NCBI GenBank assembly: GCA_010024875.1
Contig: RGFZ01000010.1
Location: forward strand, 4,728 to 68,727
Source: Oxalobacteraceae bacterium
GTDB taxonomy: Bacteria; Pseudomonadota; Gammaproteobacteria; Burkholderiales; Burkholderiaceae_D
Length of the DNA: 64,000 bases
Reading direction: 5' to 3'
Shown here: positions 58,131 through 61,617 of the stretch, piece by piece
Position numbering within the stretch: the first letter of the stretch is position 1
Layout of the letters: every line of letters starts with the position of its first letter
Program-made: the position numbers and the translations under genes
The notes under the pieces: generated by a model
What the model saw: the letters and a program-made list of their open reading frames with translations, nothing else
Told to the model about the DNA's origin: nothing
The model's database searches: none

Positions 58131-59036
58131 TCAGGTCAACCCTTTCTCTTCCCTCACCTGCGCGGCAATCGCCTCCACCTGCTCGTCGCTGATGCCCAGA
58201 CGCTTCTTGAGTTCTTCGAGCTTGATGCGCTCTTCATCGGTAACGATGCCATCGGCTAGCGCCTCGCGTATCTCCATCTCGTACATCACCGCGCGACGCT
58301 CGACCTGCGTGGTGTAGGCCGTCGCTACCACACCGGTAAGGATAGCCGCCAGTGCAATGCCCAGCACCTGGGTCAGTACCACCAGCACGGTACCGAATAA
58401 CGATTGTGGATCGGCATTACCCCAACCCGAAATAATGGTCAGCAAATACCATTTCATCGTGGACGGGATGGAGGGAAAGACTTCAGGCTGCAGATGTCCT
58501 TCGGCGATGTAGATCAGCGACGAACACAACAGGCAGGAGATCATTAGCAGAAACAATGCCGACGTGAAGGAATCGCGCTCGGCTTTGACTGCTTCGACCA
58601 GATCGGTCAGTGCGCTGTTGTACCTCGAGAGCTTGAAAATACGCATCAGCCTGAACAGTCGCAGGAAGCGCAGGTCGAGGCCGGGAAACAGCAGCTGCAG
58701 GTAAAAAGGTATGGTCCCGAAAAAATCGATGAATCCGTAGAAGCTGAAAATATACTCTTTGCGGCCACGCCAGGCACCGCCCTCATCGGCAGAGTACTTC
58801 ATTGCATAAGACCACACACGCAGTACATATTCGGCTGTAAAGATCATGACGCTCACCACATCGAAAATGTGGAAAAAGTCCGCATAGGCCTCGTGCAGCT
58901 CGTGTACAGACTCGAGAATGATCGCGACTACATTGAGCACCACCACGGAGGCGATAAAAATCTCGCAGTAGCGCGCAGCTTTTTCCTCGACGGAGCCATC
59001 GAGTATCTTGTACAGACGTGTCTGGAAGGATTTCAT
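58131..59036 (-). CDS. 6-TM voltage-gated K+-channel-like ion transporter with non-canonical filter and TerB-like C-terminal helix bundle
   Basis: S1-S4 with LRFLRLFRLMRIFKLSR; pore region PEVFPSIPSTMKWYLLTIISGWGNADP; tail LADGIVTDEE. Confidence 0.85.
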   Translation of the reverse strand: MKSFQTRLYKILDGSVEEKAARYCEIFIASVVVLNVVAIILESVHELHEAYADFFHIFDVVSVMIFTAEYVLRVWSYAMKYSADEGGAWRGRKEYIFSFYGFIDFFGTIPFYLQLLFPGLDLRFLRLFRLMRIFKLSRYNSALTDLVEAVKAERDSFTSALFLLMISCLLCSSLIYIAEGHLQPEVFPSIPSTMKWYLLTIISGWGNADPQSLFGTVLVVLTQVLGIALAAILTGVVATAYTTQVERRAVMYEMEIREALADGIVTDEERIKLEELKKRLGISDEQVEAIAAQVREEKGLT

Positions 59037-59450
59037 CGCCGTTGGTTCAATGGTCGCTGTTGGGTAGTGTCCGTGATCTGGGCAAACCCACCGAATACCC
59101 GTATTTTTATTAATGTTTAGGCTCTCTATTATTCAATAAATTTCCCGGACCGTAAGCGAAAAATATGAACCCTACCGAGATTATTAAGAAACCAATAACA
59201 GTACGCTCAACCAGCGCCGAAAAAGCTGACGCATTTCTGACGAACATCCTCTGAAGGGGTCAATCTGTGGGTTCAGGTACGCCGCGCCGAAGGCCATTGG
59301 AAACTTCATTTCATTAAAGACAATTCCTGGTACTAGACTTGAGGGAAATAAGTTTCAAAAATTCCGGGCTTTCAATAAAATCACGGCGGTGCACTGGACG
59401 CGTTGGCGCTCGGTCTTGATTTTTGACTCATTCACTTACAGGGAATAGAC

Positions 59451-59792
59451 ATGGCAGTCGATAAAGATTACGGCAATCTGCTGGTCGGCAAAGGCGTGAC
59501 GATCAATGGCGTCTTTCAGGTTCCTGGCGAAGCGTTCATCGATGGCAAGGCCGAGGGGGAGCTTACCGCAGATGCGATCAATGTGACCGCGAATGGTGTC
59601 GTGACCGGCAATGCCGTAGCCAGCCACGTGAAGGTAGCCGGACTGATGGAAAAATCAATCACTGCCAAGACCTCGCTCCTGGTTGAATCGACCGGCTCGG
59701 TTCGTGGCTCCATCACCTACTCTGATCTCGAGATCCGCAAAGGCGGCGAGGTGGAAGGAAATATCGTCATTCTTGGCAGTGGCAGCAAGTAA
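59451..59792 (+). CDS. Bactofilin (polymer-forming cytoskeletal protein)
   Basis: LLVGKGVTINGVF...IDGKAEGEL...G.V.GSITY..LEI.KGG.VEG beta-helix repeats. Confidence 0.88.
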   Translation: MAVDKDYGNLLVGKGVTINGVFQVPGEAFIDGKAEGELTADAINVTANGVVTGNAVASHVKVAGLMEKSITAKTSLLVESTGSVRGSITYSDLEIRKGGEVEGNIVILGSGSK

Positions 59793-59815
59793 GGCCTGCC
59801 ATCTCCTGATTAATC

Positions 59816-60625
59816 ATGACCACCGTCTCTCTGCGCGTGCCGGGCTGGCGCGGCGCGATAGAGCGCTTTGTGATGCACCCGTGGATACAACATCTGCTGG
59901 TGGTGCTGATCGTTTTGAACGCGCTGATTCTGGGGTTAGAGACGGATGCCCGGATCCACGAATCGATAGGCCATTATCTGATGGCTATCGACCATATGAT
60001 CCTGGTAATCTTTATCGCGGAACTGGTGCTGTTGATATCAGCACGCGGCCTGCGGTTCTTTACTGATCCGTGGTGCGTGTTCGATTTCATCGTGGTCGGC
60101 ATTGCACTGGTGCCCGCGACGGGCAGCTTGTCAGTGCTGCGTGCGCTCAGGGTCTTGCGGGTACTTCGCTTGATCAACAAAGTGGAGAGCATGCGCAAAG
60201 TGGTCAGTGGCTTGCTGACCTCCCTGCCCAGCCTGGGCTCGGTGTTCAGCCTGATAGTCATCATCTTCTATGTGTCGTCGGTCATCGCCACCAACACGTT
60301 CGGTGCAGCATTTCCCGAGCTGTTTGGTGACATGTTCTTGAGCGCTTTCACGCTGTTTCAGGTGATGACACTGGAGGGCTGGTCGGAGGGTATAGCGCGG
60401 CCGGTGATGCAGGTATTTCCTTACGCATGGATCTTTTTTCTGCTTTTCATCCTGATCGCGACTTTTGTGATCGTGAATCTGTTCATTGCAGTGATCGTTG
60501 ATTCACTGAACTCTCCGTCCAAGTCGGCTCATCCGCCGCTCGCAGAATCGGAACTGAAGGCGCTGCGCGAAGAAATTGCCGAGCTGCGTCAGCTACTGAT
60601 CGAGCAGAAAAAAACTGAACATTAG
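59816..60625 (+). CDS. Bacterial voltage-gated Na+/Ca2+ channel (BacNav family)
   Basis: DPWCVFDFIVV, S4 LRALRVLRVLRL, FPELFG, filter TLEGWSE-GIARPV, NLFIAVIVD, C-terminal coiled coil. Confidence 0.92.
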   Translation: MTTVSLRVPGWRGAIERFVMHPWIQHLLVVLIVLNALILGLETDARIHESIGHYLMAIDHMILVIFIAELVLLISARGLRFFTDPWCVFDFIVVGIALVPATGSLSVLRALRVLRVLRLINKVESMRKVVSGLLTSLPSLGSVFSLIVIIFYVSSVIATNTFGAAFPELFGDMFLSAFTLFQVMTLEGWSEGIARPVMQVFPYAWIFFLLFILIATFVIVNLFIAVIVDSLNSPSKSAHPPLAESELKALREEIAELRQLLIEQKKTEH

Positions 60626-60640
60626 GTAAATACGCAAGCA

Positions 60641-60680
60641 CAATAAAAAATGCCGCAGCACGCTGCGGCATTTTTTATTG
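60641..60680. terminator. Bidirectional intrinsic terminator
   Basis: caataaaaaatgccgcagc-ac-gctgcggcattttttattg, 19-bp perfect inverted repeat. Confidence 0.85.
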
Positions 60681-60686
60681 TACGAA

Positions 60687-60791
60687 TTATCTTTTCTTCA
60701 TCCGCTCGATATTTTGCCGGTTGAAGTGATTGGCCATCATGAAACCCGCGCCAACAACCCAGATGAACAACAGAATTTGCCAGATCTTCAT
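60687..60791 (-). CDS. Small single-TM protein (34 aa), downstream of pucBA
   Basis: MKIWQILLFIWVVGAGFMMANHFNRQNIERMKKR; GGAGAG RBS; stops just before the terminator. Confidence 0.55.
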   Translation of the reverse strand: MKIWQILLFIWVVGAGFMMANHFNRQNIERMKKR

Positions 60792-61125: not shown

Positions 61126-61347
61126 CTATTTTCGTCCCACTTCCTGCAAACTCAATGCCGCCACCTGTGGCGACTCGGGCTGGATGCTCGATACCTGAGC
61201 AGCGCTGCCATTGAGGAACTTCTTGACCCAGGTGGTATTCAGGGTCAGGGCCAGATGCACCGAAAACGACGCGACTGCGACCGCTCCGATGACGATGGGA
61301 ATACCCACCGACGGCTTAACAACGCACCACATTTTTCCATAGATCAT
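61126..61347 (-). CDS. pucA: Light-harvesting complex 2 alpha apoprotein
   Basis: MIYGKMWCVVKPSVGIP...A.S.SVH(31)...TTW(40); typical LH2 alpha layout with extended C-terminus. Confidence 0.93.
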   Translation of the reverse strand: MIYGKMWCVVKPSVGIPIVIGAVAVASFSVHLALTLNTTWVKKFLNGSAAQVSSIQPESPQVAALSLQEVGRK

Positions 61348-61365: not shown

Positions 61366-61518
61366 TTAGTGAAGCCAGGGTGAATAGATATACGCGAGCA
61401 GATGAGCGAATGCTGCGATCATTCCGAAAAGCTGCGTACCTTGGATCAAATGACGGTGTATTTCTTCTGATTCGGCCTCCGTTAAACCGGTCGGCCAAAC
61501 TTTGTCTTTGTCAGACAT
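61366..61518 (-). CDS. pucB: Light-harvesting complex 2 beta apoprotein
   Basis: ATG 61518 after AGGAGG; VWPTGLTEAESEEIH...AAFAHLLAYIYSPWLH. Confidence 0.95.
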   Translation of the reverse strand: MSDKDKVWPTGLTEAESEEIHRHLIQGTQLFGMIAAFAHLLAYIYSPWLH

Positions 61519-61617
61519 CGTGACACCTCCTAGAAAGACATCGCTTACGACTGGATCCATCTCGACGCATCAGCGAGGACACGCAGAATGGCATTGACCA
61601 ACTATCGGTGTAATCGG

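Follow-up and report, generated by a model that had tools for sequence, protein, structure and literature searches.

The window analysed here is a 64,000-nucleotide stretch of contig RGFZ01000010.1 (positions 4,728 to 68,727 of the forward strand) from the Oxalobacteraceae bacterium assembly GCA_010024875.1. At 59816..60625 on its plus strand lies a gene for a one-domain voltage-gated cation channel of 269 amino acids. The protein is a member of the NavAb-like bacterial voltage-gated sodium channels (BacNavs), an assignment that draws on the open reading frame, Pfam and Protein Data Bank (PDB) searches, Foldseek structure comparison and the ratio of nonsynonymous to synonymous substitution rates (dN/dS). 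Its selectivity filter, TLEGWSE, has glycine at position 4 and glutamate at position 7. The original prediction, made from the sequence of this locus, took these residues to indicate Ca2+ permeability.

The reading frame matches the Pfam Ion_trans profile (1.4e-40) and, over nearly its whole length, the PDB entry 5hvx for NavMs (1.7e-67) and many NavAb and CavAb entries (about 1e-62). The filter comprises residues 185-191, in the context FQVM-TLEGWSE-GIARPVM, and is encoded at 60368-60388 (+) by the codons ACA CTG GAG GGC TGG TCG GAG. Translation of the opposite (-) strand at these positions yields nothing meaningful. In the HMMER alignment, the query segment 'fqvmtlegwsegiarpvm' lies opposite 'fqvmtleswsmgivrpvm' of NavMs, with every column paired. 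This pairing places the motif exactly at the selectivity filter. TLEGWSE is a true filter, and a chance motif is excluded. The prediction had reported TLEGWSE between QVM and GIARPV, a reading with which the translation, the Pfam and PDB matches and the NavMs alignment all agree. It had also quoted TLESWSM for NavAb and NavMs and TLEGWVD for CavMr; the reference channel sequences, taken from the Figure 1 source data of Shimomura et al. 2020 (PMC7041947), contain these motifs.

An AlphaFold2 model of the monomer (predicted local distance difference test score 69, predicted template modelling score 0.38) serves to define helix layout and fold family, not filter geometry. Its helices fit S1-S4, the S4-S5 linker, S5, the pore helices P1 (residues 173-184) and P2 (189-200), S6 (204-232) and a C-terminal helix (243-268). 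The top 50 Foldseek matches are exclusively NavMs, NavAb or CavAb chains. NavMs from Magnetococcus marinus and NavAb from Arcobacter butzleri are the best matches of the window protein in sequence and fold.

The voltage sensor and pore are intact. The S4 helix (residues 105-122, 60128..60181 (+)) carries arginine at every third position four times (R109, R112, R115 and R118), followed by K122, and there are acidic countercharges in S1-S3, as in NavAb-like BacNavs. These five basic residues and the acidic residues E42, D59, E69 and D90 are invariant in 64 homologues. Also invariant in this set is a pore core consisting of T179-Q182, M184-L186, W189, A194-P196, N221 and D229. It includes T179, L180, F181, Q182 and M184 of the P1 pore helix (60332..60367 (+)), which has the FQVM end seen in NavAb and NavMs. 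Within the filter, Glu3 is the high-field-strength (HFS) ring. The Gly4 codon GGC (60377..60379) corresponds to the position of NavAb Ser178, and the Glu7 codon GAG (60386..60388) to that of NavAb Met181, where it would contribute an acidic ring to the outer vestibule of the predicted tetramer. The S6 inner helix is encoded at 60425..60511 (+). The C-terminal helix (60542..60619 (+)) probably forms a BacNav neck and coiled coil, and the NavAb C-terminus aligns with the query as far as residue 260.

Several comparisons define the scaffold in which this filter resides. By blastp, the window protein is 49% identical to NavSp, 45% to NavMs (229 bits), 43% to NavAb, 39% to NaChBac and 34% to CavMr (101 bits). 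In a neighbour-joining tree of 192 sequences (100 bootstraps, rooted on CavMr plus NavPp), it lies deep within the NavAb-like set. The node separating this set from NaChBac and NsvBa has a bootstrap value of 88, and nodes deeper inside the set have low values. The distance from filter Thr1 to the S6 asparagine is 36 residues with no intervening cysteine, as in NavAb, NavMs and NaChBac. The corresponding spacings in CavMr and NavPp are 53 and 55 residues, with two cysteines each, and the 17-19-residue cysteine-containing insertion between P2 and S6 of these channels is missing from the window protein. Across the P1-filter-P2 segment, 21 of 29 positions match NavAb and 8 of 29 match CavMr. Identity, tree position, spacing and segment matches together identify a canonical BacNav scaffold. 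The placement in a NavAb-like lineage that accompanied the prediction is thus upheld by the identities and the tree, and the phylogeny that it proposed, against CavMr and NavAb, groups the protein with the NavAb-like set.

The window protein therefore resembles NavMs and NavAb in its six transmembrane helices, four-arginine S4, P1 and P2 helices, FQVMTLExW pore signature with short P2-S6 spacing, and C-terminal helix. It differs from them at filter positions 4 and 7 (Gly and Glu instead of Ser and Met), in overall sequence (43-45% identity) and in having a freshwater betaproteobacterium as host. Among the NavAb-like features tested, the only departure is the filter itself, which reads TLEGWSE instead of the canonical TLESW(S/A)(M/S). 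With CavMr from Meiothermus ruber, a native prokaryotic Ca2+ channel of the AnclNav branch, it shares TLEGW at positions 1-5 and an acidic residue at position 7. However, CavMr belongs to another branch, has Val6 and Asp7, ends P1 in FSIL rather than FQVM and contains a 17-residue P2-S6 insertion with its cysteine pair. Of four features considered for CavMr/AnclNav membership, only Gly4 is present; the branch, the Cys-pair loop and Val6 are not. Nor does the filter have the Asp4 of the engineered CavAb/CaChBac type (TLEDW or TLDDW). Judged from its sequence, the protein is a canonical NavAb/NavMs-type BacNav, the natural equivalent of NavAb carrying S178G and M181E.

The gene is under purifying selection. 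It was compared with three syntenic loci (L001, L002 and L003) from river and lake metagenome-assembled genomes (MAGs) assigned to Oxalobacteraceae or unclassified Pseudomonadota. At synonymous distances (dS) of 0.2-0.65 from the window, all three retain TLEGWSE, and dN/dS for the channel is 0.09-0.18. Amino-acid changes concentrate in three parts of the protein (the N-terminus, the S1-S2 region and the C-terminal neck), and the pore is identical except for residue 192 (Gly or Glu), immediately after the filter. Constraint on the channel is somewhat weaker than on its neighbours, for which dN/dS is 0-0.035 (a bactofilin gene) and 0.07-0.09 (an alpha/beta hydrolase gene).

Metagenomes from fresh water, rivers and drinking water contain DNA of this locus, as do eight riverine metatranscriptomes, and the host is a freshwater Burkholderiales bacterium of Oxalobacteraceae-like affiliation. 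RNA contigs from four river metatranscriptomes cover 59364..60603 (+) without a break, which defines an apparent transcription unit. Contig depth is about 0-2 upstream (59116-59363) and 0-8 downstream (60604-60727). One 907-nucleotide RNA contig, spanning 59495-60401 with no mismatches, bridges the junction between the bactofilin gene and the channel as well as the filter codons. DNA carry-over in the RNA libraries is possible to some extent, but the contigs are taken to represent real transcripts because of the intergenic gaps and the 100-400-fold higher depth on adjacent antenna genes (see below). The channel is thus transcribed in situ, apparently together with the upstream bactofilin gene. 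A promoter-like site at 59354-59381 is a match no better than expected by chance. Position 60387 is joined to 60471 in two RNA contigs of low depth, from runs X12 and X14. This 83-nucleotide skip just after the filter would shift the reading frame. A repeat was looked for and none explains the joint, which is probably an assembly or alignment artefact.

The bactofilin gene (59451..59792 (+); Pfam Bactofilin, 1.1e-18) ends 23 nucleotides upstream of the channel start, and its product is 99-100% identical in L001-L003, where the channel is 89-93% identical. This linkage was considered as a general functional clue and rejected, as it is confined to these closest relatives.

The window gene is an ordinary member of its family, and its filter is neither rare nor new in the NavAb-like lineage. 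The 120 closest database proteins have the filters TLEGWSQ (29), TLESWSE (28), TLESWAD (20), TLEGWSE (16), TLESWSD (12) and TLEGWSD (9), and 57 of them have Gly4. Of 47 single-domain proteins that represent 50%-identity clusters, Gly4 is present in 12 and, together with Asp or Glu at position 7, in 9. When a back-translated QVMTLEGWSE pattern was matched exactly against species-representative genomes, it was found in 44, including about 14 cultured Thioalkalivibrio strains, Desulfonatronospira, Oxalobacteraceae, Polynucleobacter, Alphaproteobacteria and Bdellovibrionales. The text of Shimomura et al. 2020 (PMC7041947) and a 2021 review state that canonical BacNavs do not show Gly4 together with an acidic residue at position 7. 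Given 57 of 120 homologues, 9 of 47 representatives and 44 genomes, this statement is wrong for natural sequences. The Figure 1 source data of the 2020 paper contain NavAb-like proteins with TLEGWSE from Thioalkalivibrio sp. HL-EbGR7 and Desulfonatronospira thiodismutans, and with TLEGWAD from Tabrizicola and Asticcacaulis. The first two share QVMTLEGWSE, the canonical scaffold and the 36-residue spacing with the window protein. They differ in being 43-47% identical to it, in lying outside its freshwater clade, in having Asp8 and in coming from soda-lake haloalkaliphiles.

The freshwater clade around the window protein has 123 tips, mostly from Limnohabitans, Comamonadaceae and Oxalobacteraceae MAGs. 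Position 4 is Gly in 59 of them and Ser in 64, and position 7 is Glu in 51, Asp in 41, Gln in 31 and Met in none. The window protein belongs to a subclade of seven tips with TLEGW[S/A]E (bootstrap 95), whose sisters are TLESWSE and TLESWSD proteins 73-80% identical to it (joint bootstrap 99). Parsimony requires a minimum of four Gly/Ser switches at position 4 on the neighbour-joining tree, and the ancestral state is ambiguous. Ser4 is encoded by AGC or AGT in all 25 loci with this residue, TLESWSM outgroup loci included, and Gly4 by GGY or GGA in 21 of 21. These codons make the switch a single transition; the GGC of the window gene is one such step from the AGC/AGT of its sisters. In the same genes Ser6 uses TCN codons, and at position 4 Gly (GGY), Asn (AAY) and, via Gly, Asp or Ala each lie one step from their predecessor.

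Position 8 (residue 192, Gly in NavAb) also varies with position 4. An acidic residue is present there in 44 of the 59 Gly4 members of the freshwater clade and in none of the 64 Ser4 members. It occurs in separate Gly4 blocks, either after TLEGWSQ (Glu or Asp) or as TLEGWSEE in the window subclade, and beyond the freshwater clade in Thioalkalivibrio and Desulfonatronospira (TLEGWSED). The window protein itself has Gly at position 8, where Glu is found in its nearest relatives (P0001, P0003, L001 and L002). No member of the freshwater clade lacks a carboxylate at both position 7 and position 8. This pattern suggests selection on the outer vestibule.

Published work on other channels provides a basis for predicting how these residues might affect permeation. 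In CavMr, the permeability ratio of Ca2+ to Na+ (PCa/PNa) is 218 and falls to 11.9 with G4S, to 40 with V6T and to 144 with D7M (Shimomura 2020, PMC7041947). Another channel with an AnclNav scaffold, NavPp, gives a ratio of 41 when its filter is changed to TLEGWTD (NavPp-D4G) and 215 in the NavPp-Mr construct (PMC7041947). The combination of Gly4 with a polar or acidic position 7 is likewise the pattern of mammalian Cav domains I and III, and a published 'beacon' classification predicts Ca2+ selectivity for one-domain channels with Gly at HFS+1. These precedents raise the prospect that a native channel of high Ca2+ selectivity, with a PCa/PNa well above 30, evolved within the canonical BacNav lineage and is encoded by the window gene, with Gly4 and Glu7 mimicking the mechanism of CavMr and of Cav domains I and III. 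The habitat of the host would favour this view as well. In fresh water, Na+ is scarce and Ca2+ comparable.

Results from canonical scaffolds do not extend these precedents to the window protein. NaChBac S192G (LEGWAS) has a PCa/PNa of 0.15, the same as wild type. NavAb S178G (TLEGWSM, called 'LivAb'; PDB 9UC3) has a PCa/PNa below 0.05, and its only gain is selectivity for Li+, with a PLi/PNa, the corresponding ratio for Li+, of 2.18 (J Gen Physiol 2026, PMC12919392). Because neither substitution increases Ca2+ permeability, Gly4 alone is not a Ca2+ determinant in this context. The authors of the CavMr study note that identical filters act differently in AnclNav and canonical scaffolds (PMC7041947), and the window protein has the canonical one, lacking the AnclNav loop. 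In CavMr itself, Val6 contributes to selectivity and Asp7 is dispensable, as the V6T and D7M values indicate, and the window protein has Ser6. Furthermore, Thioalkalivibrio and Desulfonatronospira from soda lakes have the identical filter, and this weakens the freshwater argument. Free Ca2+ is very low in soda lakes. A strongly Ca2+-selective channel is therefore considered unlikely at this locus. The glycine had been put forward in the prediction as a Ca2+-selectivity determinant. This holds for CavMr, where G4S lowers the ratio from 218 to 11.9, and for NavPp, where D4G yields 41, but not for NaChBac S192G or NavAb S178G.

Position 7 influences the handling of divalent ions, although the mutant results conflict. 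NavAb M181A and the double mutant S178G/M181A have PCa/PNa values of 0.36-0.47 and lose discrimination between Li+ and Na+ (PMC12919392). The double mutant, with a PCa/PNa of 0.47 and a PLi/PNa of about 1, and LivAb have the closest characterised filters, since both place TLEGW in a canonical scaffold and the double mutant lacks Met7 (PMC12919392). They nevertheless have Ala and Met, respectively, where the window protein has Glu. An acidic position 7 in a BacNav scaffold is shared by NaChBac S195D (LESWAD) and by the natural TLESWAD and TLESWSE channels of Limnohabitans and other Comamonadaceae, which are 63-80% identical to the window protein but have Ser4. Of these acid-7 Ser4 channels, only NaChBac S195D has been measured; its PCa/PNa is 17, with strong Ca2+ block. 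The equivalent NavMs filter, LESWSD, gives no current. EhEukCatB1, a natural eukaryotic one-domain channel with the filter TGESWSE, is Na+-selective. The proposal that an acidic residue at the last filter position favours Ca2+ consequently fails as a general rule, given NaChBac S195D (17, with Ca2+ block), CavMr D7M (144), EhEukCatB1 and the inactive NavMs variant.

A second alternative is that the channel is strictly Na+-selective like NavAb, with Gly4 and Glu7 either nearly neutral or tuning conductance, gating or the capture of cations from dilute water through an outer charge ring. The persistence of Na+ selectivity in NaChBac S192G and NavAb S178G is in line with this account, as is the behaviour of EhEukCatB1 with its own Glu7. 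The published role of acidic rings at HFS+3 and HFS+4 is to attract cations, not to determine selectivity, and the occurrence of at least four single-transition Gly/Ser swaps among close relatives is what would be expected if their functional cost were small. However, removal of Met181 from NavAb raises PCa/PNa about ten-fold, and Asp7 in NaChBac gives both the ratio of 17 and Ca2+ block. The loss of Met7 in 123 of 123 freshwater-clade tips and the restriction of acidic residues at position 8 to Gly4 members (44/59 versus 0/64) also look like directed remodelling of the vestibule, not drift. Strict Na+ selectivity is a possible outcome that we entertain only tentatively.

The interpretation we prefer, held with about even confidence, is that the encoded channel is permeable to Na+ and excludes Ca2+ less effectively or is blocked by it. 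In this model, the protein would assemble as a homotetrameric voltage-gated cation channel of the canonical NavAb/NavMs branch in which Glu3 would still provide the high-field-strength ring. Gly4 would strip away the layer of serine hydroxyls and widen the outer mouth, as observed in the crystal structure of NavAb S178G (PMC12919392). Glu7 would replace the divalent-excluding methionine of NavAb with a vestibule ring of four carboxylates. Na+ should permeate such a pore, and weaker exclusion of Ca2+ should appear as Ca2+ permeability, Ca2+ block or both. The predicted PCa/PNa is roughly 0.1-20, not a CavMr-like value above 100. Supporting this expectation are the ratios of 0.36-0.47 for NavAb M181A and S178G/M181A, the ratio of 17 with Ca2+ block for NaChBac LESWAD, and the absence of Met7 from all 123 tips of the freshwater clade. 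Of the original proposal of a Ca2+-selective or mixed channel, the mixed form remains a reasonable candidate, and CavMr-like selectivity is less likely in light of the mutant data.

Several considerations weigh against this preferred interpretation. The ratio of 41 for NavPp-D4G, although obtained in an AnclNav scaffold, makes a synergistic gain of Ca2+ selectivity from Gly4 and Glu7 possible. Conversely, the Na+ selectivity of EhEukCatB1 suggests that Glu7 may change nothing, and the non-functional NavMs LESWSD mutant shows that scaffold context matters. The AlphaFold2 monomer, at the scores given above, is uninformative on filter geometry. A literature search for TLEGW[S/A][E/D] and related filter motifs found no recordings from natural NavAb-like channels, its sole results being a EukCat preprint and the inactive NavMs LESWSD mutant, and one on Thioalkalivibrio voltage-gated sodium channels returned only a general review of alkaliphiles. 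The carboxylates at positions 7 and 8 are compatible with an outer charge ring that raises divalent affinity or captures cations, and they favour none of the three readings.

Other channel genes lie near the BacNav gene in this and related genomes. A divergently oriented gene at 58131..59036 (-) encodes a Kv-like (voltage-gated K+ channel-like) protein of 301 amino acids with six transmembrane helices, identified by Pfam and with Kv7, Kv4 and Shaker as best PDB matches. Its filter is unusual in that the K+ signature TTIGYGDKYP aligns to IISGWGNADP, so that GWG stands in place of GYG and Ser in place of Thr. Orthologues 63-99% identical across genera keep the SGWGN motif, and this conservation indicates that the gene is not a pseudogene. 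The Kv-like gene is linked to a BacNav homologue in other genera too.

Larger arrangements are found in Limnohabitans and other Comamonadaceae. There, the BacNav homologue (TLESWAD) belongs to an array of four to five voltage-gated-type channel genes that all lie on one strand. In one example (L008, 38-6378 (+)), the array contains Kv-like genes with the motifs TLASVGYGD, TITSGYGN and TIISGWGN, a gene for a 214-amino-acid membrane protein, the BacNav homologue and a gene for a 530-amino-acid protein with two voltage-sensor-like halves and a GYGD pore. The layout is the same in L004, L005, L011, L016, L017, L018, L020 and L024. Loci of the TLEGWSQ type have no channel array. These arrays look like a conserved 'excitability' gene cluster.

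On the other side of the channel gene, a light-harvesting antenna alpha/beta gene pair (Pfam LHC) is located at 61126-61347 and 61366-61560 (-). RNA contig depth on this pair is 100-400 times that on the channel operon in three of the four river metatranscriptomes. No reaction-centre genes are found within the adjacent 3 kb. The antenna pair and its heavy representation in the metatranscriptomes suggest that the host is an anoxygenic phototroph.

A broader hypothesis draws the filter variants and the linked channels together. The freshwater clade may constitute a natural allelic series, varying between Gly and Ser at position 4, among Glu, Asp and Gln at position 7 and among Gly, Glu and Asp at position 8, built on one scaffold, in which the members with Gly4 and acidic residues, the window protein among them, are Ca2+-selective channels of canonical BacNav descent. 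Together with the linked Kv-like channels they would then serve planktonic bacteria as a module for voltage-gated Ca2+ signalling. We regard this proposal as quite improbable. If it were true, the 'glycine' route to Ca2+ selectivity would have evolved repeatedly by a single A-to-G transition.

The window gene is one more natural BacNav with Gly4 and an acidic position 7, and its value is as a test case rather than as a discovery in itself. Together with its relatives, it provides natural material well suited to testing the 'glycine equals calcium' rule, since Ser4 sisters 73-80% identical to it are available for comparison. Should the channel prove to be selective for Ca2+, it would represent the first native Cav on the BacNav scaffold whose structure is best understood. 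Otherwise, as the mutant data suggest, the glycine mechanism would be confirmed as scaffold-dependent.

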